Assembly: GCA_013265495.1 (NCBI GenBank)
Contig: MU058009.1
Coordinates: forward strand, 3,677,780-3,741,779
DNA length: 64,000 bases
Direction: 5' to 3'
Source: Vicugna vicugna
Taxonomy: Eukaryota
The notes beneath the pieces were generated by a model. That model worked only from the letters and a program-made list of their open reading frames with translations, did no database searches and was not told the DNA's origin. A program made the translations under genes and the position numbers. Positions within the stretch are counted from its first letter, which is position 1, and every line of letters begins with the position of its first letter. Positions 10,478 through 64,000 of this stretch are shown in pieces.

Positions 10478-10645
10478 AACCTAGGTTCTGCCTCCAACTT
10501 CCCATGCAGTTTGGGGAAATCATTTAACCTCTCAGAAACTCCAGTTTTTCAGGACGAAAATCACTTTGAAGAGAAGATGCCTCTTCCAGGGCTACTGGTA
10601 CAATGGACGCAAAGGGTTCCCTAGAAGCACTTCATAAGCTGCCCG
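10478..10645 (+). mobile_element. MIR SINE
   Basis: GGTTCTGCCTCCAACT...TTGGGGAAATCATTTAACCTCTCAGAAACTCCAGTTTT. Confidence 0.55.
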
Positions 10646-13128
10646 GCTCTGTGGTCCAGGCCCTGGGGTCTCTAAGTGAGGCTTTCAGAAGCTCGTCATC
10701 CGTTTCTCTGAGACCCATGCACGTAGCTGTGTCTGAGCAGGGAGACCAGGTGGCTGGTGGACACAATTTCCTGGACCAGCAGCAGAAGTTCAAAAGGAAC
10801 CAAGCCAGCCCCTCAGAGTGGAGCCAAGTGGATGAGCCCAGCAGGTGAGGCTGGGCCAGCGGCCAGTGGGAAGAGTGCAGCGGTCCCAGGACCTAATTGA
10901 ATCAAAGTGAGATGGAGGCAGACTGGCTGCAGCAGCCCTGGGTCTCTGCCTGTCTCTGGCCGGGGCCCTCATGATAGTCGTGCCTTGCCCTGTAATCTCT
11001 AAAACAGCCCCTCGTCTCCCTCTGTGCTTAGGGATGGCTTGAATACAGCAAGGCCAGTGCCTCCAGCCTTTGATCTGAGGCCTAAGGCCTCATGCAAGCA
11101 GGACTTCAGGCCTGCACTTGAGAAACCAAAACTGAAACAACACAAAAACCCCGAGGTTATACATATTGCATGATTGCATCCAGTCTCCGCTTAGGGCTGA
11201 TTTTCCTCCATTGCCGATTGCAGGAAGCCAGAGAGATGGGATTATTGTCTCGGGCAATCACAAGCGGAGGCACCTGGCAGCTGAGGCCTCCACCTCCTCT
11301 CCCTGCGCACTTGTAAATAGGCCACATCGAGCTCCGTTCTGTCCCCAGAATCCTCAGCTCGCAAGGCACCAGCAGAGGCATTTACCAAATCCCATTATAA
11401 CTGCAAGCACTTTGCAAAGCCAATCTCCGAGTCAGAGGGTGACCTTTCAGAGCAGGAACTCAGAGGAGCCTGACCCACACACGGGGCCACAGGCACCTGA
11501 CCCTGGGTTTTCAGCCACGGCAAAGCCAGGCCCACCTGCTGTCCACACGGATTCCAGGGATCAGGGGAGAGAGAAAGTAGAGAGCCAGGGGCCAGAGCGC
11601 GCCACCCCTGGACGTGCAGAGACCCGCAAGTCCCTGGCAAGCTGTGCGGTCCGTGCCTGCAGCCACGCCCACTGAGACTCCGGATATGAGCAGCCTGGGG
11701 AACAGGGCCGGGGTTTTACTTTCCTGCTTCTCACTGGTGTGAGTTCCTGGTGGGCTTCTCCAGGCTCTGACTGCAGCCAGCCCAACCCCGGCTCCGAGCT
11801 CCCAAGCTAAGACAGCAGAGGGTGGAATTCACGGTGAAGTGGCAGGTGCACAAGCTCCCCCCTCAGGCCCGGCGGTGCTGCCTGGCCTGCCGTAGCGCTC
11901 TGCTTTGTCCTCTGCCCTCTCCCATCTCCTCAGCCACCGCGCGGACCCGGATCCACCAGTGTGTGGAAGGGTCACGTGTGTCGTCCCCGAAGGGAAGCCC
12001 CACACCCTCTGCGCTCTCCCTGTACTGGCCCAGGTGTGCCTTCTGGAAAGTTTCCCGTCCTTGATCTTGGTAATTTGCCCAATTCAGCATTCAGTTACAC
12101 TCACCCTGCACTTGGCTCCACCGAGGTTGGAGGCCTGGTTCTGAGCCTGCACTAGAGGCCGGTCCCTGTGTCCCGTCTTGTCCTCTCTGGCCCTTTTCTC
12201 CAGCTGCGCTCAGTCCCTTGTTCTGTTCTGTGGCCACGTCACCTCTGCCCACGATGCTGTGTCCTCCTCCCTTCCTCCAGGAAGGCCCCATCGGCCCGGC
12301 CCGCAGTCTGGACCTTATACGCCGGGCATCGCACCCACCCTGCACAGCGTCAGTGCCCAAGCAGGGCCCCGTTCACTGCTGAGGGTGTGGCCCCAAACCT
12401 CCTTTCTAGAAGGAAACAGCCTACCCAGAGAGTGCTGTCACCAGCGTATTGGAGGGACCAGCCTGCAGAGAGCCCAGCCTGTGAGGTTTGCACGCGGACA
12501 ACAGAGAGGGTGATACGCCACGGGGAGGACCAAGTGCATCAGACCAGAAATACGGAACAAACCCCAAGAAGGACCTTGGAACACAAGTCAAGGGTTTGCT
12601 CCTCCGTCAGCCACGATGAGAGGGGAAGGAGCAGCCGTCTCAAGTGTGTGGGAGCCGGGACTGGGGAAGGGCAGCAGCTTCCTTCCTGAAATCCTCCTCC
12701 GTCTGTCACAGGTGGTGAGGAGAGAATGAAAGAATCAATGTGAAGGTGCTTTGAACTTTTTTAGGCTCAAAAGTGCTGTAAGGATCTAAAGTATTATGAT
12801 TGTCTTTTGACCGTGTGATGATCTTGATTCCATGGGGCACGGTGGGGTGTCTGCGGCTGCCTGGGTGGGGCTCTTGGCAGCTGCGATTCAGAGGGAGATT
12901 TATAGACGAGGGTAGAGGGTCAGAGGTGAGGTTTTATCTTAATTACGTGCTGGCAAGTAGCCTTCCGCCAAGTCACAGCCCAGGAGGAGGAGAATCAAAT
13001 GTCCCTTTCCCCACAGCACCATCCCCGCCTAACAGACACCATGACTTTGTGCCGTTTTCACCGTGGCTCCCAGCTCAGGCATGTGCTCCCAAGCCATCAT
13101 CGGGTGCCACGAGGAAAAATTATTATTA

Positions 13129-13157
13129 ATGATGATGATGATGATGATGATGATGAT
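13129..13157. repeat. (GAT)n microsatellite at left breakpoint of tandem duplication
   Basis: AT followed by (GAT)9, directly visible. Confidence 0.95.
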
Positions 13158-13289
13158 GGCAAGTCAGCTGACACCAGCACTGATGTCCCAGAAGAGAAAG
13201 TATTAAAAATTTATCCCGAACATCAACACTTTGATCTCACTTCCTAAGTTAGGATTCTGCTGCAGCTGACAAGGTACAAAGACCACAGA

Positions 13290-13725
13290 TCACAAAGCCC
13301 GAGAAAACGGGGCTGGAATCCTGCCCTGACGTGTGCCAGTCGTGGAGTCTTCGGCAAAGCCCTTGACTCTTCTGGGTCTCAGGTTCTTTAAGTGAGGATA
13401 ACGTTACTGTCCGCCTCGTCTTGCTGTTTAAATGCAGCTGGGAAGGGGCAGGAGAGACATTCAGCCGACTGCCTGGCCCGTGGTGACTCCCGAGTACTGT
13501 CGGCTGTTGTGGACGTCGGTGTCACTGCCGGGCTTTGAAAAGCCTCAGGATCCCCTCTCGATGTGTGCCAACTGCAGATACAGGGCTCGTCCCCCAAGAC
13601 TAATGAATCAGTCTCCTTTTCACCAAAAGTGAGAACCGCTGGGCTGACCTAGAGTTCTGTGCGGATTAACTTAGATGAGGCGCTTCGAGTGTCTGGCATG
13701 GTGGCCAGCACACAGAGGGCCTCAG
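13290..13725 (+). mobile_element. MIR SINE interrupted by MER5-like fragment (duplicated at 18668-19103)
   Basis: MIR 5'/core (GGAATCCTGCCCTGAC...GGCAAAGCCCTTGACTCTTCTGGGTCTCAG) and MIR 3' (GGATTAACTTAGATGAGG...TCTGGCATG) flank a MER5-like piece (CCCCAAGACTAATGAATCAG...GTGAGAACCGCTG). Confidence 0.5.
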
Positions 13726-16029
13726 GACTCGCTGGCACCCGGACTCAGGCTCAGGGAGGCAGTGGCGTCAGAGAGCCAAGCAGGAACAGGGATCTACACC
13801 CCTGGCTCGCGGCTCTTCCTGCCTCCCTTTGAACCTTGCTCACCTGCTGAGCAGTTCGGCGCTGTGGGTCCTCTTTATCACTAACACAAGCCCTTGAATG
13901 CTGGGATAATTCAGGAGCGTCGCAGACCCGGACAGAGCCACCTATCCAGAGAGCAGGTAACAGATGAGGTAGGAGTCCTCCCTGAGTTCAAGGTGAGGCT
14001 TCCGAAGGCCATTTTCTGCTGGCGTCAGGCACGCTATTTTAGGAATGTGCGATTCCGGCCTTGGAAGCCAAGCCTGGTTCAAAACAATCATTCACAGTTA
14101 ATGAACTTACAGAATTACGGCCCTCGGATCAGAGCTTTCCTCTCGCTCGTTTGGCCAGCTTGCCTGGATCAGGTGTTGAAGCACAGAATTGAGAAACGTT
14201 TCAGAGAAATGGCACACATCAACCTCCCTGTGAACGGCCAGGCTAATTTAGGCCACTTCTGTTTAATTGTACTACGTACCGCCACGCGAGGGATGTGCAA
14301 GCTAACATCCTCTCCCCATGTCCAGGCGGGGAAACGGCCACCAGGAGAAGACCCCTGTGGAGTCTGGGTTTAGAAGAGGTGGACAACTTGCCAATCTTCG
14401 TAGCATTTCCAACGAGCTAAATAGAACCTACTCATCCCATTGATAGCAATGCATACTTTTTTAAAAAATAAATACGTTCGATATAGAGAAAGCACCGTTT
14501 GATTGAGTAGATTTCCTTTAATCGATGTTTTATTTCCAGAGTGTGCTTTTAATTTCTCGAAGTGCTTTTACTGTGTCACCTCGTTTGATTTGCGCCCGGG
14601 CTCTGCATGGCGGGACGCAGGCATTATTTCACTTCACTGAGCAGGTGGCGAAGCCGAGGCTTGAACTGCGCAGGCAGTTAGTCCAGGGGACAGGGTGGCG
14701 TTGTTAGAGCCGGAACCTCCGCTTCTGAGCCTCCAACCTGCGCCCTTTCCACACGATGACCCTGTCTCTCCTGAAAAGTCACACCGTGCACCGTGAGAAA
14801 ATATGTAGCGTATTAACTTGCCACGGGGGGCTGGAGACCTCGGAAAACAGCGTCGAAGAATTTCCTGCATCACTGCCCTGGGAGAAGGTCGTCTCTCTTT
14901 GTCTCTCGCTATCTCTTGCTGTTCTGTAATGTAAAAAAGATTTTTTTTTTTGCCTCCTGCTGGGCGCTTTTAAGTAGTTTCCACAGAAGGAGATGTAGAG
15001 GGTCTCTAGATTGCATTTCAGGGTTGGTTGCTGGAGCAGGAAAGGTGACCATGGCAGACCAGGTGGCCATCTATCTTGATCCGGTGGCGTGGGCTCAGGA
15101 GAAGGGCCACCCTGGAAGCAGCTGTGTGCGTGCTCACGGGGGAATAAGCGGCCAGACTGCGAAGTCTTTCCCTCTTTTGTCACAGACTCGAATTTTGGGG
15201 GCAGACATCAGAAAGTCTGACGTCTCATCACTAATGCTGTGGCCAAGGTCTGAGCTGCTGACTGCGTCTTAATCTACAGAAATCCCAGCCATGCCCTGCA
15301 AGGGGCCTGATGGTGGCTGCACCCAAGACGCTGGGGAAAGATTCTGAACGGTGTATAGAAAAACCGGAATCTGGCTGCTCGAGTCACGTGCCAAGCAAAG
15401 CCTCCACGGTCACCGCACTGGGGACTCTTCCTCTCAATGTCAGCTCTGCCCTTTCTCTGCTGCTTGGCCTGGACATTAGCACTGAGAGCATCCCTGCGGC
15501 TTAATCACAGGAGTCGTTAGTAAGAGGCAGACAGGCGGGGGCGCAGGGTGGTCTGACTGAGTTCTGCTTTATTCTGCTTACATGTGAAATCCTGGGTCTC
15601 ACACGTGCCCTTTCGATATCCTTCCTAATTGGTTGCCCAAGCGTCACTTTTCTTTTCAGCCGACTGGGGTGGAATCGGCCTCTCTGGTCTGCCTCTGCTC
15701 TGTTTCTGCCTCAGGCAGCACGGCCTTCCAGTCCTTGGCCCGGTCCCTGGAGAGACTTCACAGGACCCCTGTACCTGCGCTCTCCTGCCTAGACCCGCCT
15801 CGGCCTAATGAGCTGGTTTTCCAGCCCAGGTCCCCGCTCTCGGAACTTCCCTGGCTTGCTTTCCCCTTGTCCACTCCCCCCGACCCGGCGCTGCCGCTCC
15901 CAGGGCTGCGGGGCCCATCGGCGCCACTCAGTATTCTGGGTGTCGGTTCAGCCGTTCGGATTAGCGCGACGCAAACATCCTCATTTACATGGAATTCACA
16001 GAAGGTGACATTCTGTCTGTAACAATAGG

Positions 16030-16380
16030 TTGTAATTATCATGGCTCTCATTTGTATTCCATTTTACAGCTTCTTGAATTGTTTTCACATGCGTTACCCT
16101 GTTTGATTCTGCTTGCAATGCTGGGATGTGGGCGATTGTTCATTCATTCCTTCACTCACCGAATATTTATCAAGGGGCCAGGGAAGGCGAGGAGATTGCG
16201 GCAGGCGTGGTCCTGCCCTGGTGGGGCTTCTATTCTAGGCCACGTACGTGTTACCTTTTGCATTTTACCGCTGACCCAACTGCGGCCCAGGGACGTTAAA
16301 AGACTCTAGTCACTCACGTAGCAAGTGCAAGAGTGAGGGCCGGACCCAGCTGTGTGGCCCTTTGTCCCGCGCTGCCTCCT
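16030..16380 (-). mobile_element. MIR SINE with nested L2 3' tail (~16137-16240); duplicated at 21408-21758
   Basis: The MIR reverse core is split by TTCATTCATTCCTTCACTCACCGAATATTTATC...GTCCTGCCCTGGTGGGGCTTCTATTCTAG. Confidence 0.5.
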
Positions 16381-17504
16381 TCACCTGGCTGAGGATGCAG
16401 AAGTCCTCATCGCACACAGAGGCTGTGCTTCAGGAGCTGAGAACCTGGAACTCAGGACGCATTCTCCCATAGAAATTACGTTATAAACGGTTAGCATGTT
16501 ACAAGTCCATTCAGCAAAAGCCCGGCTAACCCGTGTAACCCATCACGTAACTGAAGCATGCGGCTAACGGGGCGGTCCCTCCCCTGCCGCGCCGCTGGGG
16601 ACGCGTCTCCCAGGCTCGTTCAACTTGATGCCGTGTGAATACCGTCCACTTTTGGCCTCTGGGCTTCCTCATTTTCCTCGCTCCTCACTGTAGACAGGGC
16701 ACCGTCCGGTGTAACAGGCCTACTTTCCTCCCTTGGTTTAATTTCCTTGTATTTTCTGCTCTCTAATTTTGTGTGTGCTGCGAGGAGCTAACGTGTGGAA
16801 GCAGCAAGCTCAGTTTGTGTGGAGGGTGTGCTATTAAATGGGTAAGTGATTGTCTGGCTTGAGGACGGATGTGTGGCTGTTTCCATAGACACCCGATCAC
16901 AATAACTAATTAGGCCAACATGCTTTCCGAAGCCTATTTCAGGGGCGTTTCGGACGTAACGTACTCCGAACACCCTATGTTGCAGGTATGTGTTTCTTTC
17001 TGTCTCTTTGGTAGCAGCCAGGAGTAACCTCTGAGGCCTCTGATAGAGACTGAATGAACAGACGGCAGGAGCTTTGCCATTCGCCGTGTAGAAGCCGCCT
17101 GAGTAATGATTATCTCTCACCCACGTTTCTGAACTGTGATCCATTGAACTGCTTCTGGGGTTTCTCCATGAGGAAGAGTCTTGAGTTCAAAATCGAGACC
17201 CAAGGGAAGTACCTCCCCTTCCCTTCCCCTGCGCCCTCCTCCCATCTGAGGCTTCCTGAGGACCTGCAACCTGCATGGGGTTAGTGACGACCAACCCAAG
17301 TCTTCTTTACCTGTGGGCCTTCAGAAGAGGCAGCATCTTGTTTCTGTTTCTGCGTTAGTACCTGGGAGGTGGGGGATAAAGGCTTCAACCTCCTATGTCC
17401 CTATGCACAGTTGCATCATAGAATCACCAGAGAATAAAACGTCAAATTTATGAGTGGTCCTAGAATCCCTCTAGCGTTGCTAAAGTAGGAGCTGCCAGTA
17501 CTGT

Positions 17505-17545
17505 TATGATGATGATGATGATGATGATGACGATGATGATGATGA
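17505..17545. repeat. (GAT)n microsatellite at MIR tail (copy at 22883-22923)
   Basis: About 13 GAT units with one GAC interruption, identical in both duplicate copies. Followed by a minus-strand MIR to ~17740. Confidence 0.9.
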
Positions 17546-18512
17546 TTCAGCATCCAGCATGTAGACGCACTGTTCTGGTTACTTGATAAAGATTCTTTTG
17601 AATCCTCCCGACAATCAGGTATCATCACAGTTCTGAGACCAACAAACTGAGCTTGAAAAGTGTAGGTTATTCGCCTAAGACCATGCAGCTTACAGACGGT
17701 AGGGTGGGCTTGGAAACCAGGAGTCTGCTGACTTCACTGCACCGAGAGGTTCAAAGGGCACCCATTCTCGCCAGGACCTGTCCCCCATCCTTAGGTGGTG
17801 TCCAAGAGGGCAGCTTGATTTACGAATGTCCTTCCGCCTTGACTCTTTCTTAGAAATGCAGGGAGCAGGAAAGGCTTTTCTAAAAATCCTTCCAAATGGG
17901 AGTGAGTCATGATGATTAACTCCAGTTTTCTGCTTTGCGTCTTGGGACAGCTCAGTCCTTTTGCTATGCCATGATCCTAACTTTAGCTTGATGACTTAAT
18001 GAGTTAAAAGCTTCATATGTATGTTACCCAAAGGGAGGAAGACACGTCCCTGAGATCTACCACTTAGCACCCCTCCCTCCAAGCAGGTGTGAAAAGGAAT
18101 CTGCACATCCGTGAGTTCAAACACGCTTGCTTCTTCTCCGAATGTCACTGAGACCCCCGTATCCACACCTCACCACCTCCTGCTTTCCCTTTGTAATCTC
18201 TGAAGATCTTTATGCCTGGAATTTTTCATAGATCCATGTTTTGCTCATTTCTAATGTAATAATAGGTCAAATGTCTTTTGGAATCATAAGCAAATTAAAA
18301 TTTAAATTGATGTGCTTTGCGTGAAAGGACAGCCATGCAGATATATATGAAAAGACAGCGTGGAGAGGGAGTGGCTCTGGGTTCCTGGATTAGAGAGTTG
18401 AGCAATTTTATGATTGCTAACCAGGAGCCAGGGTGTACGTGGATTCCCGGATCCCTCTCCTCCCAAATCCAGCATCCACAGGTGAACTTTTGAGCAAATC
18501 TCTTTTTTTTTT

Positions 18513-21500
18513 ATGATGATGATGATGATGATAATGGCAAGTCAGCTGACACCAGCACTGATGTCCCAGAAGAGAAAGTATTAAAAATTTATCCCGAACA
18601 TCAACACTTTGATCTCACTTCCTAAGTTAGGATTCTGCTGCAGCTGACAAGGTACAAAGACCACAGATCACAAAGCCCGAGAAAACGGGGCTGGAATCCT
18701 GCCCTGACGTGTGCCAGTCGTGGAGTCTTCGGCAAAGCCCTTGACTCTTCTGGGTCTCAGGTTCTTTAAGTGAGGATAACGTTACTGTCCGCCTCGTCTT
18801 GCTGTTTAAATGCAGCTGGGAAGGGGCAGGAGAGACATTCAGCCGACTGCCTGGCCCGTGGTGACTCCCGAGTACTGTCGGCTGTTGTGGACGTCGGTGT
18901 CACTGCCGGGCTTTGAAAAGCCTCAGGATCCCCTCTCGATGTGTGCCAACTGCAGATACAGGGCTCGTCCCCCAAGACTAATGAATCAGTCTCCTTTTCA
19001 CCAAAAGTGAGAACCGCTGGGCTGACCTAGAGTTCTGTGCGGATTAACTTAGATGAGGCGCTTCGAGTGTCTGGCATGGTGGCCAGCACACAGAGGGCCT
19101 CAGGACTCGCTGGCACCCGGACTCAGGCTCAGGGAGGCAGTGGTGTCAGAGAGCCAAGCAGGAACAGGGATCTACACCCCTGGCTCGCGGCTCTTCCTGC
19201 CTCCCTTTGAACCTTGCTCACCTGCTGAGCAGTTCGGCGCTGTGGGTCCTCTTTATCACTAACACAAGCCCTTGAATGCTGGGATAATTCAGGAGCGTCG
19301 CAGACCCGGACAGAGCCACCTATCCAGAGAGCAGGTAACAGATGAGGTAGGAGTCCTCCCTGAGTTCAAGGTGAGGCTTCCGAAGGCCATTTTCTGCTGG
19401 CGTCAGGCACGCTATTTTAGGAATGTGCGATTCCGGCCTTGGAAGCCAAGCCTGGTTCAAAACAATCATTCACAGTTAATGAACTTACAGAATTACGGCC
19501 CTCGGATCAGAGCTTTCCTCTCGCTCGTTTGGCCAGCTTGCCTGGATCAGGTGTTGAAGCACAGAATTGAGAAATGTTTCAGAGAAATGGCACACATCAA
19601 CCTCCCTGTGAACGGCCAGGCTAATTTAGGCCACTTCTGTTTAATTGTACTACGTACCGCCACGCGAGGGATGTGCAAGCTAACATCCTCTCCCCATGTC
19701 CAGGCGGGGAAACGGCCACCAGGAGAAGACCCCTGTGGAGTCTGGGTTTAGAAGAGGTGGACAACTTGCCAATCTTCGTAGCATTTCCAACGAGCTAAAT
19801 AGAACCTACTCATCCCATTGATAGCAATGCATACTTTTTTAAAAAATAAATACGTTCGATATAGAGAAAGCACCGTTTGATTGAGTAGATTTCCTTTAAT
19901 CGATGTTTTATTTCCAGAGTGTGCTTTTAATTTCTCGAAGTGCTTTTACTGTGTCACCTCGTTTGATCTGCGCCCGGGCTCTGCATGGCGGGATGCAGGC
20001 ATTATTTCACTTCACTGAGCAGGTGGCGAAGCCGAGGCTTGAACTGCGCAGGCAGTTAGTCCAGGGGACAGGGTGGCGTTGTTAGAGCCGGAACCTCCGC
20101 TTCTGAGCCTCCAACCTGCGCCCTTTCCACACGATGACCCTGTCTCTCCTGAAAAGTCACACCGTGCACCGTGAGAAAATATGTAGCGTATTAACTTGCC
20201 ACGGGGGGCTGGAGACCTCGGAAAACAGCGTCGAAGAATTTCCTGCATCACTGCCCTGGGAGAAGGTCGTCTCTCTTTGTCTCTCGCTATCTCTTGCTGT
20301 TCTGTAATGTAAAAAAGATTTTTTTTTTTGCCTCCTGCTGGGCGCTTTTAAGTAGTTTCCACAGAAGGAGATGTAGAGGGTCTCTAGATTGCATTTCAGG
20401 GTTGGTTGCTGGAGCAGGAAAGGTGACCATGGCAGACCAGGTGGCCATCTATCTTGATCCGGTGGCGTGGGCTCAGGAGAAGGGCCACCCTGGAAGCAGC
20501 TGTGTGCGTGCTCACGGGGGAATAAGCGGCCAGACTGCGAAGTCTTTCCCTCTTTTGTCACAGACTCGAATTTTGGGGGCAGATATCAGAAAGTCTGACG
20601 TCTCATCACTAATGCTGTGGCCAAGGTCTGAGCTGCTGACTGCGTCTTAATCTACAGAAATCCCAGCCATGCCCTGCAAGGGGCCTGATGGTGGCTGCAC
20701 CCAAGACGCTGGGGAAAGATTCTGAACGGTGTATAGAAAAACCGGAATCTGGCTGCTCGAGTCACGTGCCAAGCAAAGCCTCCACGGTCACCGCACTGGG
20801 GACTCTTCCTCTCAATGTCAGCTCTGCCCTTTCTCTGCTGCTTGGCCTGGACATTAGCACTGAGAGCATCCCTGCGGCTTAATCACAGGAGTCGTTAGTA
20901 AGAGGCAGACAGGCGGGGGCGCAGGGTGGTCTGACTGAGTTCTGCTTTATTCTGCTTACATGTGAAATCCTGGGTCTCACACGTGCCCTTTCGATATCCT
21001 TCCTAATTGGTTGCCCAAGCGTCACTTTTCTTTTCAGCCGACTGGGGTGGAATCGGCCTCTCTGGTCTGCCTCTGCTCTGTTTCTGCCTCAGGCAGCACG
21101 GCCTTCCAGTCCTTGGCCCGGTCCCTGGAGAGACTTCACAGGACCCCTGTACCTGCGCTCTCCTGCCTAGACCCGCCTCGGCCTAATGAGCTGGTTTTCC
21201 AGCCCAGGTCCCCGCTCTCGGAACTTCCCTGGCTTGCTTTCCCCTTGTCCACTCCCCCCGACCCGGCGCTGCCGCTCCCAGGGCTGCGGGGCCCATCGGC
21301 GCCACTCAGTATTCTGGGTGTCGGTTCAGCCGTTCGGATTAGCGCGACGCAAACATCCTCATTTACATGGAATTCACAGAAGGTGACATTCTGTCTGTAA
21401 CAATAGGTTGTAATTATCATGGCTCTCATTTGTATTCCATTTTACAGCTTCTTGAATTGTTTTCACATGCGTTACCCTGTTTGATTCTGCTTGCAATGCT

Positions 21501-23890
21501 GGGATGTGGGCGATTGTTCATTCATTCCTTCACTCACCGAATATTTATCAAGGGGCCAGGGAAGGCGAGGAGATTGCGGCAGGCGTGGTCCTGCCCTGGT
21601 GGGGCTTCTATTCTAGGCCACGTACGTGTTACCTTTTGCATTTTACCGCTGACCCAACTGCGGCCCAGGGACGTTAAAAGACTCTAGTCACTCACGTAGC
21701 AAGTGCAAGAGTGAGGGCCGGACCCAGCTGTGTGGCCCTTTGTCCCGCGCTGCCTCCTTCACCTGGCTGAGGATGCAGAAGTCCTCATCGCACACAGAGG
21801 CTGTGCTTCAGGAGCTGAGAACCTGGAACTCAGGACGCATTCTCCCATAGAAATTACGTTATAAACGGTTAGCATGTTACAAGTCCATTCAGCAAAAGCC
21901 CGGCTAACCCGTGTAACCCATCACGTAACTGAAGCATGCGGCTAACGGGGCGGTCCCTCCCCTGCCGCGCCGCTGGGGACGCGTCTCCCAGGCTCGTTCA
22001 ACTTGATGCCGTGTGAATACCGTCCACTTTTGGCCTCTGGGCTTCCTCATTTTCCTCGCTCCTCACTGTAGACAGGGCACCGTCCGGTGTAACAGGCCTA
22101 CTTTCCTCCCTTGGTTTAATTTCCTTGTATTTTCTGCTCTCTAATTTTGTGTGTGCTGCGAGGAGCTAACGTGTGGAAGCAGCAAGCTCAGTTTGTGTGG
22201 AGGGTGTGCTATTAAATGGGTAAGTGATTGTCTGGCTTGAGGACGGATGTGTGGCTGTTTCCATAGACACCCGATCACAATAACTAATTAGGCCAACATG
22301 CTTTCCGAAGCCTATTTCAGGGGCGTTTCGGACGTAACGTACTCCGAACACCCTATGTTGCAGGTATGTGTTTCTTTCTGTCTCTTTGGTAGCAGCCAGG
22401 AGTAACCTCTGAGGCCTCTGATAGAGACTGAATGAACAGACGGCAGGAGCTTTGCCATTCGCCGTGTAGAAGCCGCCTGAGTAATGATTATCTCTCACCC
22501 ACGTTTCTGAACTGTGATCCATTGAACTGCTTCTGGGGTTTCTCCATGAGGAAGAGTCTTGAGTTCAAAATCGAGACCCAAGGGAAGTACCTCCCCTTCC
22601 CTTCCCCTGCGCCCTCCTCCCATCTGAGGCTTCCTGAGGACCTGCAACCTGCATGGGGTTAGTGACGACCAACCCAAGTCTTCTTTACCTGTGGGCCTTC
22701 AGAAGAGGCAGCATCTTGTTTCTGTTTCTGCGTTAGTACCTGGGAGGTGGGGGATAAAGGCTTCAACCTCCTATGTCCCTATGCACAGTTGCATCATAGA
22801 ATCACCAGAGAATAAAACGTCAAATTTATGAGTGGTCCTAGAATCCCTCTAGCGTTGCTAAAGTAGGAGCTGCCAGTACTGTTATGATGATGATGATGAT
22901 GATGATGACGATGATGATGATGATTCAGCATCCAGCATGTAGACGCACTGTTCTGGTTACTTGATAAAGATTCTTTTGAATCCTCCCGACAATCAGGTAT
23001 CATCACAGTTCTGAGACCAACAAACTGAGCTTGAAAAGTGTAGGTTATTCGCCTAAGACCATGCAGCTTACAGACGGTAGGGTGGGCTTGGAAACCAGGA
23101 GTCTGCTGACTTCACTGCACCGAGAGGTTCAAAGGGCACCCATTCTCGCCAGGACCTGTCCCCCATCCTTAGGTGGTGTCCAAGAGGGCAGCTTGATTTA
23201 CGAATGTCCTTCCGCCTTGACTCTTTCTTAGAAATGCAGGGAGCAGGAAAGGCTTTTCTAAAAATCCTTCCAAATGGGAGTGAGTCATGATGATTAACTC
23301 CAGTTTTCTGCTTTGCGTCTTGGGACAGCTCAGTCCTTTTGCTATGCCATGATCCTAACTTTAGCTTGATGACTTAATGAGTTAAAAGCTTCATATGTAT
23401 GTTACCCAAAGGGAGGAAGACACGTCCCTGAGATCTACCACTTAGCACCCCTCCCTCCAAGCAGGTGTGAAAAGGAATCTGCACATCCGTGAGTTCAAAC
23501 ACGCTTGCTTCTTCTCCGAATGTCACTGAGACCCCCGTATCCACACCTCACCACCTCCTGCTTTCCCTTTGTAATCTCTGAAGATCTTTATGCCTGGAAT
23601 TTTTCATAGATCCATGTTTTGCTCATTTCTAATGTAATAATAGGTCAAATGTCTTTTGGAATCATAAGCAAATTAAAATTTAAATTGATGTGCTTTGCGT
23701 GAAAGGACAGCCATGCAGATATATATGAAAAGACAGCGTGGAGAGGGAGTGGCTCTGGGTTCCTGGATTAGAGAGTTGAGCAATTTTATGATTGCTAACC
23801 AGGAGCCAGGGTGTACGTGGATTCCCGGATCCCTCTCCTCCCAAATCCAGCATCCACAGGTGAACTTTTGAGCAAATCTCTTTTTTTTTT
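18513..23890 (+). repeat. Tandem segmental duplication, copy 2 (5,378 bp)
   Basis: Starts directly after GAGCAAATCTC(T)10 with ATGATGATG... and ends at the second GAGCAAATCTC(T)10. I found six substitutions versus copy 1 by eye. Confidence 0.98.
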
Positions 23891-27360: not shown

Positions 27361-30300
27361 TCACTGCTCCGAGCTGAGGCCTAGGCTAAGTACGTCTCTG
27401 GGCCCGGCATCTAGCGGGTGCTGGGCCTGCAGGGGCGCTCACGCCATGCCGGCTACACGGGCACCTCAGGATGGCTCGTCGCCCCAGGCTGGAGCATGCG
27501 TCTCCGTCAGCTGAGACTGTCAGCTTTCTCCGGAATGATTAAAAGCAGGTAAAGGAGGAGGAAAAAGACTAAAGAAATCATCTTTGTACATTTTAATCGG
27601 AGCCATTCTGAGCGGTCTGATAAGGCGGGTTGTGGAAATGTCAGCTTCTCCTTATCTCTAATTGACTTAAGTTGAGGCGGCTCTAATCCTTGTGTGCACA
27701 GCAGCCTGGAATAGAGCGATGAGGCCAATCGATTCCTACTTTTTAATTAACACATGAGCTGCTTTAAAACAATAGCATACTGGGGGCAGCGAGGGAGCAG
27801 GAGGGAATGTGAGACGGGTCCTCTCCCCGGCGGTGACATTTAGAGCTGTATTGACAAGTGTCAGCATCTGCTCTGAGTCAGGGACGGTGGACTAAGTATG
27901 CCTCGTGCCTGGGTGTGGTCCCTGAAGGCTGTGGCCGAGGTGGCAAGGGAGTCCCTCCAGGCACTAACAGGGCGACTCTTCCATTCACTAAGCTTTGTGG
28001 GGGGGCCCAAGGTGTGTGTTTGTGAAACTGGTCCTTGCACTGTCCTCTGTGCTGGTGCTTGGCCAGGGGCAGTTAATAAGTCAGTGGCTCAGTTCTGTTT
28101 GGTCCCAAGTCCTGAAAACCCAGTTTCACTGTGTGTCGGACGTCTCGTGTCCACGAGCAAGTGGAGTCTGGAGTGATTTCACCCACATCGCGGCCTCTGT
28201 GTCCATGTGTAAATCCCCAGGCACTCGGCGCTGACCCCCTAATCTCATCTTATGCGCCTGGCTTAAAGGGTTAGGCTTTTGTCTCCATCCCTGTGGCGTT
28301 TCCTTAGGCCAGCCTCCAGCTTGGTTGACCGCTGTCCTTGTCTCCTACAGAATGACTTCCACTTGCCCAGCCCTGGGAGCTGGGTTTCGCCCCCGGTGCC
28401 CTGCTCCCTCACTTCTGCACTCGTCTTACATCAGCTTCATCCAGGCTGTGGTCACGGCTTGTCTTCCGCCCCCGGTGGGTTCCATCGCTCCCCGGACAGT
28501 CCACCCTGTTCCCCAAGTTAGCTCCCTGGCGTCCTGTTACCTGCGGCCTGAGCTTTCCTTGGCATCTTAGACCCTGATGTTTGAGCTCTTCCCTGCCCTC
28601 GTTCTGGGGAGAGGAAGGAGCAACACACCCCACTGCTGAATTGGCTTCCCCAGACCCATCCCTGTGAGAGCCACGTCTGGTGCTGTCTCCTTCCTGGGCT
28701 GTTTTCAAGATTGCAGCCCTCCAGAGAGGTTCAGCGCCAAGTGGCCACGGTTGTGGTCCTTGTAGCATTCCTGGAGTGTGCGCTAGAGGGCAACAGGCTT
28801 CTAACTGGCCTCTTAATATATTAACAGATGGAAGACAGGAGCATGGGTGAGGGGGCTCTGAGTACTTCCCACTGCAGGCTGTAAAGATCTGACTGTTTCG
28901 GAGGTGTGGAAGGCAATAAATGAAACGGCTGTTTATAATGCTCTGCCCGGGCCCTCGTGTTAAACGTGCACCGCTCTCTCTTTCCTCTTGTTTGCATTTT
29001 GTTTGTTTTCATGTTTTCTGTGTCTCCCCCGAAGCTCTGGCCTCAGGGAGACACACTGACCTGGGAACATGCCCTTTTCCCTGTTAGAATTCGTATGTCT
29101 CTTAAGGAGAGGGACCATATTTTGCCCGGTGAGGTGGCTCCACGCTAATAAGACGAGGTGACATTAAGCACTTACTTTGTGTCCCAGACCACACTCTGCC
29201 CTTTATGTGTCTACTGCTTTGAAAGCTCCCCTCGCTCACTTGCTCACTTGGTAACTGAGGGAAGGGAAGTGGGAGATGTTGAGAAACAGCCTCGGGCAGG
29301 TCCCGGCAGCCGGGTGAGTGTCCGAGGCGCTCAGTCCGTCTGCGGCGCAGCCTCTCCACATCCGTCCCGGGGCCTGACACACAGAGGTTCCCTGTCAGGT
29401 GAGCTGAATGGATGATGAATTCAGACAAGAATTCCGTGTCCAGTTCTGCTACTGACTTGAACATTTTCTCTAAATCGCTGAACTTTGTTCTCCTATCTAC
29501 CAACTTCCATGAGGCCCAGGCCGTAGCAAGCGTGCAGTAGATACTGAATGAGTGACCGCTACATAAGGCGAAAAGTGAACTGGTGATGCTGGAGCGCTTT
29601 TCTAGGTCAGCAGTCTGCAAGCGCGGCCTAGGGTGAGCCCTCGTCTCTGACCTCTGCACCACGCTCTGCCCTCGACATTTTGACTACGTGCCACGCTCGT
29701 TGGCTGTGACTGCTCAGTGTGTGTGTCCCTCATTCCCCAGTGACTGAAGTCTGCTTCCCTGTCGCCCCTGGAGCCCCGCCCGGTGCCCAGAGGAGAATGC
29801 GAGTTCAGTAAACACAGGGTGAGATGGAACTGAGCGTTGCTTGCGCACACTTCAAGCCGGAGGAGCACTCAAGTAGCAGCGCCCTCTGGGCTATTGTTTT
29901 AGTTTGCAGAGAAGCTGCCACATGGTTTCTGCTAAACAGGTGCTTTTAACAGGTCAGGGAGCAGCACGCAGGCCGCGGGCTGGAGGCGCAGTTTGACCTC
30001 CTGCCGCAGTGCACTTACCATCCGCCCGTGAGTGCAGGTATCCAGAGAGGCCCCTGCAGCTTTTAGGAAATCCAGAGCGATGGTCTGAGAGAGAGACCCC
30101 CACGGAAACTGATGAAACCCCACTAACTGAATGAATGTTGCCCTGAGATGTTTGCAGACACACACACACACAGAAGACCCAACTTAATTCTTTCTGACCC
30201 TCAAGCTACTTTCAAAGTTGAGGGCAACATTAGACTCTCAGTCGTACTCCTTCCTGGAAGTGGGGTGCAAAACAGTTTTCAGAGGGCAACTAGGATGGGG

Positions 30301-40100: not shown

Positions 40101-43100
40101 TTAGATGTGGAAAGGCTAACGGGCCAACAGGCGTGCCTTCCTTGGGCATAAGAAGAGGTTGTCTGCATCCAGATGCTCCTGTCAACACTCTCTCTTGCAG
40201 AATTGATTGGACTCTTCAGTCCTCATTCTCCAAGACTCGAAGGTGCGAACTCAGAATACATCCACAGTGAGCAGAACTTAAAGGCACAGGCTACCACGTG
40301 ACAGCCCCAGCCGAGCCTGCAGCATCGCTGGGATGATCTAAAGCTGGTTGTGGGGGACGTACAGCGGCCTCTGTGCTCCTCACCCCCAGGGTTCATCTTC
40401 CGGCTTCTCATGAGTTAGGTGTGAAATCAAAATAGTGCCTCGCTCCTTTAAGACTCCTTCCCAGGATAATGGAATTTGTGATCTCACAATTGCATGAATC
40501 ACTGCCAGCCCCCTTCAGTCAATTCATATTTCTAGAGTTCGTTAGTGGCTCAGGAGGAAATTGCATTTATTATAATTGCTTCTAATTGCACCAGATTAGT
40601 GATTACAATTATTGATGGCAGCTGATTATTCATTAAGCATCAAATCAATTCCCGTACTTATCATTACTCGAAACAGTGACTCTGATGAGGAGAGGTCTTA
40701 CAGGAGGCCGCGTCCACCCTCTCCCCTTCCTGCCGGGCCACCTCGCCATGCTGTCTCTAAACGAGCACCTGAGAACAATTCAGGGCGTAAAGTGACAGAG
40801 AGGCATCCATCCCCTTCCCATCCAGCGCCCAGGGCCGAGCCCGGCACTGGCTGACGACGCCGTGGAGTCTGTTAAACATCACCAAAGGCTATTTGGAGGC
40901 CCCGGAATGCTCCGGGCCTGACAGGCTCTTCCAGGAAGTCCTTCTCGGTTGCATGGTGGAAACATCAGAGTTCCCTGGCCCACCTCTTCTGAGACATGTG
41001 TCACCCAGAGTGTGAAACTAGGCCAGAGAGCCACACGGATCAGACTGGAAGTTCTGGCCCCAGGGGAGCTACACGGAGCCCGGCCAGATGCCTGCCACGC
41101 CTGGGCCGGAGAGTCCCCTGTGGGTTGTAGGTGAACAGGGAGGAGATCTCTGGTCCCCTTGCTTCCCACCTGGAATCTCTCACTGAGAATGATGCTGACA
41201 GAGAGGAAGAGCCAATACTCACGTGAGGACTGAGTCCCTCCCTTAGAGGGCTGTGCTGACGGCTGAATTAGGTAACATGTCTAAAGACCTTGTCTTGCCA
41301 GGTAGAGTAGTCACTCAATGAACGTCACTTCCACATCACCTTCAACAGTTTTATTCCTCGTCTCGTCCTGCGCTGGCTCAATATTAACTGTGAATTCACT
41401 GTCGCTGCAGTTTCTTGCCCAAACCAGGGCGTTTGTAATAGAAGAGCAGCTTCCAGAAGACCTTCCCGTGAGGGTTTCCGTTCTTTGGCTCATTCATCGG
41501 TCCCTACAGCGTGCCGGGCACTGGATCTCGAGGAGCTGAGGGATAAATAAATCATAGGAACTGACCTGGAGCAGCTCGCAGCCAGATAGGAAAGACTGTC
41601 CATTCTGTTGCCAAGGCTTTGTTTCATTCAAGGAATGTGCAAGGTCTGATATGCCCACAGAGGCTGGAGAGGCCCAGCGCAGCTCAGAGGGTCAAGAAAG
41701 GCTCGAAGAGCTGGGATTTGAGATGGGCCTTGAAACTGTGTGAATCTCTTCAAACGCCTGGTGGAGTGGCTAGACTTCCAACAGGGCAAGCAGCACCAGG
41801 AAATCCAGAGGCAGGGAGGGGAGGCGTTGTGGAGCGGGGCCGCGTGACCACTGTGATGACGCCAGGTGCTGTCCCCAGAAGCCCCCGCGGACAGAAACCT
41901 CCATGACCAAGGGGCCTTCCCTTCCTGAGCGGCTGAGGCCTCAGAGCTGTGGAGTTGTCGGAGGGTTTCCCTGTGGACTCCCTGAGACCATCGCCTCTGA
42001 TGACGCAGAATGCTAACCCGTGCTTTCCCCAGACTTCCGAGTCACTCAGATCTGCCCCCGTCCCCGTGCCCTCAACCGTCATCCTCGTCCCTCCCCTGCT
42101 TTTCACAATACCCCTCATACACCTGTGACTCAGTTCACAGGGCGTAAGTGTCCACAGGGAGAGAGGTGTTCGGACGCGCTGTTGCCTACACAGACACAGA
42201 CGGGAGAGGGCAGGAGGAGGCGCGCAGGTCAGGTCTGATCTAGTCCCAGGCCCTCTGGGGAGGTGAACAGTGGTCCCCACACCACCCAGAGGATGGGGCC
42301 CAGAGCCTGGATGTCACGGCTCCGGTGCCTTTCTCTCACGGGTCTTGCCCACCTGGTTGCCAACCTCTCTGCCTCTTTCAGGGAAGCTGGAGGGGAACGT
42401 GTGACTTCTCTGGGCAGAATGCATCTCTCTCCTGCCTTAAGTCTCTTGTGCATCCTACTTCTGAGCGAGCGGACACTTGCTTTTGTCCTGAGCCCTCTCC
42501 AGTCCCAGGCTATTTATCCATGCAGGAGGAGACCAACTTTCCTCTCCAGCTGATGCCTCCTTTGCCTCCCATCTGCTAAATGTCCCATATGGTGGGTCTC
42601 CTCTCTGAAGGCTGATCTTTTAGGGGGACGAAATACATAAGTGTGTAATCACTTCCAGAGAAACCGGAGAATATGAATGTTCTGTGGTCGGTCAGATCCC
42701 CAGACCATGCTCTCTCTCTCTAGGCAGCTGCATCCACTCTCAGCCTCTTGCCGAGACCCACTGGAGGTCAGTCCCTGATCAGGTGCAGCAGTGGGGATGC
42801 TCACCCGCTGACTTGGAAACGGGGGTGTGTTTGGCAGTTTTCCGACTGAGGAGAAAGCTACTGTGGCCAGAACCAGAAGGAAGTTCTGTGTGGTGACCAA
42901 GAGCCACAGGGATTTGCCTGGGCTGCTCTGGGAGGCCACCTTGAGTCTGCCGGCAGCTCCCACGTGGGGTAAGGACAGGCCCTGCTCTGCCCCGGCAGCT
43001 CGAAGCTTCAGACAAAGAGCCCCTGCCCCTGTCCAGCCCTCTGCCAGCCAGCGCCCGTGGTCCTGTATCGTCCCGGTAACAGTTGGTAAACGAGTCCCAG

Positions 43101-43708
43101 GCTAGCCGCTCGCGCAGGATGGCTGTGCGGTAAGAGCCTTCATCCTTATGGCAGGCACATTAATGCCAAGTTTGCTCATTCTAATTAATAACAGTCAGTA
43201 AACACCAAAGAGAGCTAATGATGATTGCAGGCCGCAGCTCCTGCGTGTTAGCAAACACACACAGGCAGGTGGTCCCCTCCCTCCCAGGAAGGGGCTGGGC
43301 CTGCTGCTTGCAGAGATGCCATCCCGTCCTCACCAGAGCCCTGCCTCACGTGGAATACATCTCAGGTTGCTTCTCACCCCAGTCCCTGGCAAATAAGAGA
43401 GGAACGAGGTCCATGCAGCCCAGGCACGTGGCAAGGACCGGCTTCGAGAAAGAGGGCCGGGAGGCAGGGCCTTGGGTCGTCTGGGTTCTGAGACAGGTCT
43501 CCCCGGCACTTGGGATTGAACCATTTCTTTCTGTGTTTTTCCCTTATTTTTAAAGTATTTTTTCCAATTCCCAAAGTAATGCAGTTTGCTTTGAAAATTA
43601 CAATACTGCAGATGTGGGTAAAGAAGGGAGTGCCTCCCTCATCCTGCTCCAGAGGCGGGTTTGTCACCTGCGGGTCATCCACATCCCCGTCCTCCGTCTC
43701 CCCTCCCC

Positions 43709-43940
43709 GTGTCCCTCCCTGCCCGGTGCCCCTCCCTGGCCGGTGCCCCTCCCATGGCTGGTGCCCCTCCCTGGCCGGTGCCCCTCCCTGGCCGGTGCCC
43801 CTCCCTGGCCGGTGCCCCTCCCATGGCTGGTGCCCCTCCCTGGCCGGTGCCCCTCCCATGGCTGGTGCCCCTCCCTGCCCGGTGCCCCTCCCATGACTGG
43901 TGCCCCTCCCTGCCCGGTGCCCCTCCCATGGCTGGTGCCC
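43709..43940. repeat. GC-rich minisatellite, 17/18-bp variant units GGTGCCCCTCCC+(TGGCC|TGCCC|ATGGCT|ATGACT)
   Basis: 12 complete units plus partial flanking units, counted directly. Confidence 0.95.
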
Positions 43941-48729: not shown

Positions 48730-49385
48730 TGCTGCTGGTAGACGTGGCTGGTGTCCAGGTTCTTGTCCCGTCGCAGAAAGAATTCAGAGACGGGACGTGG
48801 GGGTTAGGAAAGTAAAGTTGGAATTTATTAAGGGGTGGATGGCATACTCTCAAGGGGAGAGCAGGCAGGCTCAGATGAGCACCTGCCCTGACTTTCTTTG
48901 GCACGTTGGTTACACAGGGTGTAGAAATGAGTGGGCGGAACAGTCACTGGGGAGGGAAGGGTCTGGGGTCGCATCCCCTGATTTTCCTCCCAGCTCCCCC
49001 TTCCCGAGGGGAGGAGGGATTTTTGTCCTTATTTAGTCTGGATTGGAAGTGTCATGGTGTCGGTGCATGGTGGGTACCTCTAATCTGCAAGGCTGATTTT
49101 ATTGAAATGAGGGCACAATGAGCAAGAAGTTACATTTGGACCCTGGAGATCCCTGCCTTTCCCCACCTTTCTTTGTCAGCCTCCAGGGCACTTGTCACCC
49201 CAAAATGTGTGATTTCCTATCAGCCCAGAGGTTCCTGCTTTTCTTTCTCTGCCCGGGGACCCCTGGTGCTTATGTGATGCAGGGTTTCCTGCATGTGGCC
49301 GGTGCCCCTCCTTCCTGCCCAGTTCCTGCATGTGGCCTGCGTCCCCTTTTCTCTGCCCATACCTAGCTGTCCACCTGCGCTAACG
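48730..49385 (-). mobile_element. Solo ERV1-class LTR (related to 493-1026) inserted into a MIR
   Basis: 4-bp TSD ATGC (48726-48729 / 49386-49389), termini TG...TAACG and TTTATT (AATAAA on minus) at ~48824. The host MIR continues on both sides (GGGAACTGAGGCT ... GGTGGCAGAGCCTGGATCAGACCCAAG). Confidence 0.8.
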
Positions 49386-54605: not shown

Positions 54606-55250
54606 TTTCTTTTTTTCCTCCATTTTTTCTATTGAAGCACAGTCAGTTTACGATGCTGTGTCAATGTCTGGCGCACAGCGGGATGCTTCAGTCACGCATA
54701 CGCACACATACATTCCTTTTCACACTCTTTTTGTTTTCAGTTACTACAACGTGTTGAATGTAGTTCCCTGTGCTCTACAGTAGAAACTTTTTCATCGATT
54801 TTATATATAGTAGTTAGTATCTGTAAATCTTGAACTCCCAACTTATCCCTTCCCACCCCTTCCCCCTCTGGTAACCATAAGTTTGTTTTCTATGTCTGTG
54901 AGTCGGTTTCTACTTTGTAAATATATTCATTTGTGTCTTTTTTTTTAGGTTCCACATATAAGGGATATACGGTATTTTTTTTCTCTGTCTGGCTTACTTC
55001 ACTTAGAATGATGTTCTGTGGGTCCATCCATGTTGCTGCAAATGGCATTATTTCATTCTTTTTTGTGGCTGAGTAGTATTCCCTTGTATAAATATACCAC
55101 AGCTTCTTTACGCAGTCCTCTGTCTCTGGACATTTAGGTTGTTTCCATGTCTTGGCTGTTACAAATAGTGCTGCTGTGAACAGTTGGGTGCATGTATCTT
55201 TTTGAATTAGAGTTCTCTCCAATATATGCGTAGGAGTGGGATTGCTGGGT
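54606..55250 (-). mobile_element. Young 5'-truncated L1 (camelid-type 3' end) with perfect TSD
   Basis: TSD (T)CATTCTAGTGTTTTG at 54590-54605 and 55250-55265. ORF 54890-55222 encodes L1 ORF2p C-terminal motifs (AALFVTAKTWKQPKCP...YYSATKKNEIMPFAATWMD). T-rich tail on the left. Confidence 0.92.
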
Positions 55251-57651: not shown

Positions 57652-58233
57652 TGTGTGTGTGTGTGTTTATTGTATTTATTTATTTGTTTGTTTATTTATT
57701 GAAGTACAGTCAGTTACAGTGTGTCAATTTCTGGTGCAGAGCGTAATGTCCCAGTCTGCATAAATATGCATGTATTTGTTTTCATACTCTTTTTCATTAA
57801 AGGTTGTTACAAGATACTGAATATAGCTCTCTGTGCTACACAGAAGAAATTTGTTTATCTATTTTTATAAATAGTGATTAACATTTGCAAATCTCAAGCT
57901 CCCCAGTTTATCCCTTCCCATCCCTTTTCCCCTAGTAACTGTGAGATTATTTACTATGTCTACTATGTCTGCAACCATAAGATTATTTACGAAGTCTGTT
58001 TCTGCTTTTTAATTGAGTTCATTAATGTCCTCTTTTTGCTTCTTTTTTTTTTTAGATTCCACCTCTGAGTGATATCATATGGTATTTTTCTTTCTTTTTC
58101 TGGCTTACTTCACTTAGAATGACCATCTCCAGGTCCATCCATGTTGCTGCAAATGGCATTATTTTAGTCTTTTTTGTGGCTGAGTAGTATTCCATTGTAC
58201 AGATATACCACAGCTTCTTTACCCAGTCCTCTG
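57652..58233 (-). mobile_element. 5'-truncated L1 (camelid-type 3' end), tail converted to microsatellite
   Basis: TSD AGCCAACCTC (57642-57651) / AGCCAACTTC (58234-58243). ORF 58052-58246 has ORF2p motifs (KKLWYICTMEYYSATKKTKIMPFAATWMDLE). The 3' end ATTGAAGTACAGTCAGTTAC is shared with 54606-55250. Confidence 0.9.
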
Positions 58234-62721: not shown

Positions 62722-62900
62722 GAGTGACCTTGGGCAAATCCCTTTCACCTCCCTGAGACTCAGTTTCCACATCTGGAAAGCCGAGATAATAGCTACCTGC
62801 CTCCTGGGGGGGATCTGCGAGGCTTAATTAATTAATGTTTGGCAGAGCTTCCGAGACCTTCGCTTGAAAGCAGCCTTATGAGCGCAAATTATTATTATTC
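62722..62900 (+). mobile_element. Ancient CORE-SINE (MIR3/MIR1_Amn-like)
   Basis: GTGACCTTGGGCAAATC...CTCAGTTTCCACATCTGGAAA...GAGGCTTAATTAATTAATGTTTG...GAAAG...ATTATTATT. Confidence 0.65.
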
Positions 62901-63029
62901 TATCACAGAAGCCTTCACTCGTTTTGCTGCTGAGGCTAATGATTATTTCTTTCCTGAAGGAAAAAAAAATATTAATTTTAACTCCGAGTAATTTATCAGG
63001 TAGTGGAGAAAAACGTATCCTTTGGCAAG

Positions 63030-64000
63030 GTCAACGCTGACTGTCTAAGTGGACGTTCCCCAGCCCGTGTCAGGGGAGGCTTGCAGGACGGTCTTTGTGT
63101 TTTGTCGTCTCCCCTGGGCGTCCTCTGTCCCTGCCCTCCTTCTGTCCCTGCCCGGGCTGTCTCTCCGGGTCACGGTGCCGGCCTGGGTGGGCCGGGGCGA
63201 CACCTCTGCTGAATGTGCTTTTGATTTCCGGGCGGAGGGGTCCTGGCCCCGGCGCTGAGCTCCGCCCGCTGCCCTTTCCAGCGGCAGCACCCCCCGCTCT
63301 GGACGTTTCCTCTGGCTCAGCAGCGAAGCCAAATGCCAAGTGTTTTTAAGAAACAAGACTTCAGACAGACCCTTGGACGCATTTCAAATAACCGGGCACC
63401 GTCTCTGTTAAAAGCATCAAGCTGACTTACTGTGTCAGACGACCTGCCTCCCCCGAGACGGTGGCCCGCGTTTCCCACGGGGTACAGGGACGCAGGACTT
63501 GGCAGCCGTTTCCTCATCTTCTCGCTTCTTGCCTGTCCCCGGGGCTGAGCGGACCCCGGGCCCCTGAGGCCGGGAGCTTGCCCGCCCCTCCAGCAGGCTC
63601 CCAGGAGTCCCCCACTTTGCTGTTTCTCAAAACTGCCTCCCAGGGCGCCTGCTGGCGCCTGGCGTGTCCTTGCTCCTGGCCTCGCCCTGCCCTGCCACCC
63701 GGCAGAGTGGTCCGGGCACTCTGTGACGGGGAGCCGGCTCCGGAGCCCGAGGGGGCATTTGGCGTGAGGCTCTCCCTCCCGGTGGCTCACGCCCCGTGTT
63801 GCTGCCTGGGCTTCCCGGATTCCACGGTTAGAGTTAGTGTTGACGCTCTTTCACTGAGGAAGGAACCGAGGAAGAGAAAAATCGCTGTCCGCTGGTTCTT
63901 CCTTCCATCCTGGTACAGGCAGTGCCTCGGCCGCACCCTCCCCGCAAAGCTCAGTCCTCCTACGGCCTCCCTTCGAGAACACCCTCCACACACACTCACA
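63030..64000. promoter_or_regulatory. CpG/GC-rich segment, possible CpG island edge
   Basis: Visibly elevated CpG density in non-repeat sequence running to the window end. The observed/expected ratio was not computed. Confidence 0.35.

Follow-up and report, generated by a model that had tools for sequence, protein, structure and literature searches.

Described Systems

False duplication by an assembler and neutral tandem copy-number variation (CNV) are both well-known kinds of event, and both have described counterparts with which a pair of adjacent, near-identical copies in a camelid assembly can be compared. Heterotype false duplications, as set out in passages of Ko et al. 2022 (PMC9516828), are adjacent near-identical copies with allele-like differences and have a heterozygous stretch next to a homozygous one; read depth, discordant read pairs and single-copy k-mers serve there as diagnostics. 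In the same passages, most false copies have a gap between them and some are linked by sequence that lacks support, whereas a duplication that was truly tandem and allele-specific sat within one contig. The pair described here likewise has adjacent near-identical copies, with differences that look allelic and what may be a heterozygous stretch beside a homozygous one, but it lacks the assembly gap of the common form. Negative and overfilled gaps, which are defined in part of the PBJelly description (PMC3504050), involve neighbouring contigs that overlap and are left unmerged. In an excerpt of the Meraculous description (PMC3158087), de Bruijn paths end at forks that arise from repeat exits and polymorphisms, and short microsatellites give rise to negative gaps. 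Our pair would share with them the unmerged overlap and the location of contig ends at forks and at short microsatellites, whereas the validated overlaps in those excerpts span 1-43 bases and ours spans 5,378, closed without Ns.

Real duplications offer two further comparisons. Polymorphic mammalian tandem duplications, in what an extract of PMC10904011 says of them, place the copy beside its template, as here, and may do so with little or no homology. The CNVs of a recent camelid map (bioRxiv 10.1101/2025.08.28.672513) belong to this group, of which the present pair is a candidate member. In Grey horses, 4.6 kb of STX17 intron 6 is duplicated head-to-tail, and for this allele the portion of PMC11362437 used here gives a 6-bp breakpoint microhomology, a conserved MITF-bound enhancer, proof from long reads and pedigrees, and a phenotype. 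Our pair is likewise head-to-tail, about 5 kb in size and non-coding, but has no microhomology at its breakpoints. A literature search, with most subscription papers outside its scope, returned no published camelid report of such a duplication.

The Tandem Pair

The window, by which we mean the whole 64-kb stretch of DNA that was analysed, contains two directly adjoining copies of a 5,378-bp unit. Self-BLAST aligns them on the same strand over 5,378 columns at 99.888% identity, with 6 mismatches and 0 gaps, and an offset scan returns the identical six sites (13155, 13766, 14197, 14590, 14616 and 15206). The parts of the pair are as follows.

13135-18512, + strand: copy 1, non-coding, 51% G+C, running on from the left flank unbroken
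18513-23890, + strand: copy 2, directly adjoining copy 1 in the same orientation and running on into the right flank
13135-15206, + strand: 5' segment of 2,072 bp, which holds all six differences (offset scan)
15207-18512, + strand: 3' segment of 3,306 bp, letter-identical to 20585-23890 (offset scan)
17506-17546, + strand: ATG microsatellite inside the unit, interrupted, with an identical counterpart at 22884-22924

Adjacency and shared orientation are what a real tandem duplication would display, and both are present. No third copy of the unit occurs within the 64-kb window, and no N letter occurs anywhere in it. Repeats that might be expected to vary are of equal length in the two copies, namely a T11 run (14941 and 20319), a T10 run (18503 and 23881) and the internal ATG microsatellite. 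The initial annotation had described adjacent copies at an exact 5,378 offset with six substitutions and with matching microsatellite and T10 tract, and self-BLAST, the offset scan and the measured repeat lengths bear out each of these points.

The Six Differences

The differences, given as copy 1/copy 2 from the offset scan, fall into two groups.

13155 G/A, 14590 T/C and 15206 C/T, + strand: differences outside CpG
13766 C/T, 14197 C/T and 14616 C/T, + strand: CpG differences

All six are transitions and three of the six are CpG to TpG changes, with all three CpG losses on copy 2; the differences therefore look like germline variants. Under random base error, the chance of six transitions out of six would be 0.0014 and that of three out of six at CpG 0.007, both calculated with assumed one-third and transition/transversion figures, and random sequencing error is ruled out on these chances as the origin of the differences.

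Their distribution is uneven. All six differences fall within the first 2,072 bp (0.29%), leaving the remaining 3,306 bp without any; for six randomly placed sites, a terminal run free of differences and as long as this has P ~0.007, and any such run has P = 0.023. The allelic yardstick against which these densities can be set was taken from word shares (see below), since no published per-base heterozygosity was found for these species: the best share in other animals, 0.92, converts to a per-base difference of at most 0.27%, which is an upper bound. At 0.27%, 5.6 differences would be predicted in the 5' segment, where 6 are found, and 8.9 in the 3' segment, where 0 are found. The closeness of 0.29% to this yardstick supports the view that the copies are allelic, and judged from their sequences they look like two alleles with a recent common ancestor over the 3' part.

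Ends and Junction

The outer ends and the internal junction are as follows.

13129-13158, + strand: (ATG)10 microsatellite enclosing the left end, with a short (TTA)3 run before it
18503-18538, + strand: junction, T10 abutting (ATG)6 ATA ATG, blunt, with no inserted bases, no N and a microhomology of 0
23881-23890, + strand: T10 tract; its final T forms the right end, and its length equals that of the T run at the junction

The gap-free alignment requires the left end to be placed two triplets into the (ATG)10 tract that spans 13129-13158. The earlier claim of no indels holds with that placement; the start of copy 2, (ATG)6 ATA ATG, can be read just as well as an allele of the (ATG)10 tract that is shorter and interrupted, and on that alternative the claim falls.

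The two ends share 0 bases of microhomology in any of the seven possible registers, and the best local alignment between the 600-bp end regions covers 16 columns, away from the breakpoints. The end homology that a microhomology- or homology-mediated duplication requires is thus absent. Repeat-mediated unequal recombination is ruled out by end regions without homology, and a transposon with target-site duplication is ruled out because such ends were not seen. Simple repeats touch 0.62% of window positions and yet mark two ends out of two, for which the chance would be 3.8e-5 if the ends were independent, a figure that overstates the case since the pattern was spotted post hoc. The T count at the junction is exactly the ten T of the right flank.

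Origin of the Pair

We consider a haplotype false duplication by the assembly to be the best reading of the pair, at a probability of roughly 0.6. Three features together favour it: differences that resemble allelic variants and crowd towards one end of the unit, a simple repeat at either end, and the lack of microhomology. A single-copy, non-coding 5.4-kb region that was heterozygous in the source animal would have been written twice: a left contig carrying allele A would have extended rightwards until a fork where the T tract ends, and a right contig carrying allele B would have extended leftwards until a fork in the ATG tract. The resulting 5,378-bp overlap would amount to a negative gap, which the allelic differences would have kept from being merged, and the contig ends would later have been joined without Ns. 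Assembly paths fork on leaving simple repeats of variable length, and we infer that the repeats at the two ends of the unit acted in this way. The animal itself would have one copy per chromosome and there would be no dosage effect.

If the pair is an artefact of this kind, the reads of every resequenced camelid mapped to this assembly should cover the pair at half the normal depth and with low mapping quality, a 5.4-kb deletion would be called there falsely, and true SNPs in the 5.4-kb region would be masked.

Several points count against a false duplication. The junction is free of gaps and of Ns, which favours a real tandem CNV; the published negative gaps, in the excerpts cited above, measure 1-43 bases as opposed to 5,378; and we have identified no assembly step that overshoots by ~5 kb. 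Two further simple repeats within the unit stopped neither path, the identical homopolymer lengths indicate that the sequence is accurate on both copies, and tandem duplications with little or no homology are real, according to the extract of PMC10904011. The gap-free junction, the small size of published negative gaps and the unstopped internal repeats are the reasons for which confidence in a false duplication is held where it is.

The alternative that survives best, and which we regard as possible if doubtful, is a tandem duplication that exists in the animal, is probably neutral and polymorphic, and has a different allele in each copy. Two routes would lead to it. In the first, a strand that had broken or stalled would have resumed on the homologous chromosome; in the second, a young duplication from a single template would have undergone a later crossover with a single-copy allele, located in copy 1 between 15206 and 18512. 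On both routes the ends would lie at simple repeats because these stall or slip replication. A contiguous junction without N is what such a duplication would leave, one crossover within copy 1 would yield precisely the observed restriction of differences to the 5' part and the identity of the 3' part, and germline-type substitutions fit it equally well. CNVs are moreover common in these species (4,247 calls including 1,265 duplications in 24 animals; bioRxiv 10.1101/2025.08.28.672513), and the little or no homology with which duplication can proceed (PMC10904011, in the extract cited) would accommodate ends such as these; on a hypothetical allele with a left-flank run one base shorter, a 2-bp TT microhomology would appear. 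Set against this, an extra event is required, whether an inter-homolog origin or a later crossover, microhomology is absent in all seven registers of the sequence as assembled, and a break within the T tract would in most cases shorten it below the ten T that are found. Nor did an independent instance of the junction turn up, in word shares too coarse to show one. If real but neutral, the pair would be one further CNV, with a readable inter-allelic history.

The initial annotation had named a polymorphic CNV and a haplotype false duplication as its two candidates. Both were apt choices, but it had put the regulatory CNV in the lead, and the anatomy of the pair leans the opposite way, towards a false duplication.

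Representation in Public Sequencing Runs

Words sampled from positions 10600-20599 were compared with public sequencing runs. Of the 24 listed, 20 contain 0.82-0.92 of the words, and none has a share near 1.0; these 20 come from 8 studies and represent 4 coded organisms. These shares show that the DNA of the locus is camelid-type and widespread. Junction words make up 30 of the 8,069 (0.4%), and copy-2 and junction words together 186 of the 8,069 (2.3%), so few that word shares cannot resolve them. A search of metagenome contigs for an exact 27-base pattern taken from the end of the unit gave 0 matches, a result that is uninformative about the junction.

One run, X16, holds 0.87 of the words in 1 million letters, compared with ~2,000 million letters in the other holders; its data may come from a clone or from targeted sequencing of the region.

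Coding and Possible Regulatory Content

Across the unit, 131 frames of at least 30 aa gave no Pfam match above cut-off and one weak sub-threshold match; in the flanks, where the scan covered all but ~0.8 kb, 389 frames of 50-72 aa or more likewise gave none above cut-off and one weak one. The two weak matches are taken as chance. No Rfam family matched within the 64-kb window. A duplication of coding or structured-RNA sequence is ruled out in the absence of any above-cut-off Pfam match and of any Rfam match, and the earlier statement that the unit contains no exon stands for the frames scanned. From its sequence the window looks like a long intron or intergenic DNA, as seen by a scan that may miss short or non-coding exons.

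Four stretches of the unit, all unstranded, have a composition of potential regulatory interest.

14365-14604: AT-rich block, also at 19743-19980
15973-16122: AT-rich block, by eye like a conserved non-coding element, also at 21351-21500
18153-18379: AT-rich block, also at 23531-23757
15476-16825: CpG-rich stretch of 1.35 kb, within numeric CpG-island criteria (500 bp, G+C 55%, observed/expected 0.65)

Eight other CpG-rich stretches elsewhere in the window pass the same thresholds. The density of TAAT/ATTA is 7.1 per kb in the unit versus 4.7 in the remainder of the window; among 107 overlapping windows as long as the unit, 16 are at least as dense, and the densest blocks lie outside the unit. 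The description of the unit as enhancer-like finds support only in its composition, which is compatible with regulatory DNA but only mildly above the rest of the window, and which does not single the unit out.

Two AT-rich, TAAT/ATTA-dense blocks elsewhere in the window, at 40463-40709 (10 hits) and 62823-63044 (13 hits), resemble conserved non-coding elements by eye, and 27535-27790 resembles both. By their sequence, these three blocks suggest the neighbourhood of a developmental gene.

The initial annotation had likened the pair to the STX17 duplication, an analogy that extends no further than size, orientation and the non-coding character of a unit of several kilobases and fails at the breakpoints, which have no microhomology. 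It invites the reading that a real duplication doubles an enhancer and alters the expression of a neighbouring gene, as the Grey allele would have it, and this we hold to be very improbable. The size is alike (5.4 versus 4.6 kb), the arrangement is head-to-tail and non-coding, and the higher TAAT/ATTA density, the three AT-rich blocks and the CpG-rich stretch count in its favour; the high share of words in the small run X16 may also reflect targeting of the region. Such an effect nevertheless presupposes that the duplication is real, the motif density is matched by other same-size windows and the strongest blocks fall outside the unit, no gene was found in the frames scanned across the 64 kb, and no camelid phenotype linked to such a duplication emerged from the literature search. 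The fully developed form of this idea, in which a segregating two-allele duplication with simple-repeat ends doubles a developmental enhancer and governs a dose-dependent trait of fibre, colour or form in a South American camelid, seems to us far-fetched. A Grey-like breeding locus would require both that the duplication is real and that the enhancer it doubles is active.

Age under a Single Template

If both copies derived from one template, the 6 differences in 5,378 positions (0.11%) would have taken 223-254 thousand years to accumulate if rates of 2.2-2.5e-9 per year are assumed. A rate of 0.7e-8, printed in a part of PMC11102080, would give ~80 thousand years if it is per year and ~400 thousand if it is per five-year generation. 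The pair had initially been called very recent; a one-template age of ~220-250 thousand years contradicts this, and the description would hold only if the differences predate the duplication. An old same-template duplication, dating back some hundred thousand years and homogenised later in its 3' part by gene conversion, would account for six transitions, three of them at CpG, as expected from its age, but it is the least credible of the readings, given that the clustering demands a 3.3-kb conversion, that unstable internal repeats kept equal length and that all three CpG losses fall on copy 2.

Other Features of the Window

Self-BLAST also revealed more distant relationships within the window. 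The segments 518-784 and 48770-49039 are related elements, 72% identical over 271 bp, which by their appearance may be retroviral LTR-type repeats. Another pair, 54624-55122 and 57691-58233, consists of related AT-rich elements that are 72% identical over 549 columns and look like LINE-1 3' ends. The CpG observed/expected ratio over the whole window is 0.46, which is high for mammalian non-coding DNA. Finally, a G+C-rich minisatellite occupies 43698-43940, with ~13 units of 17/18 bp and a higher period of 35 bp.
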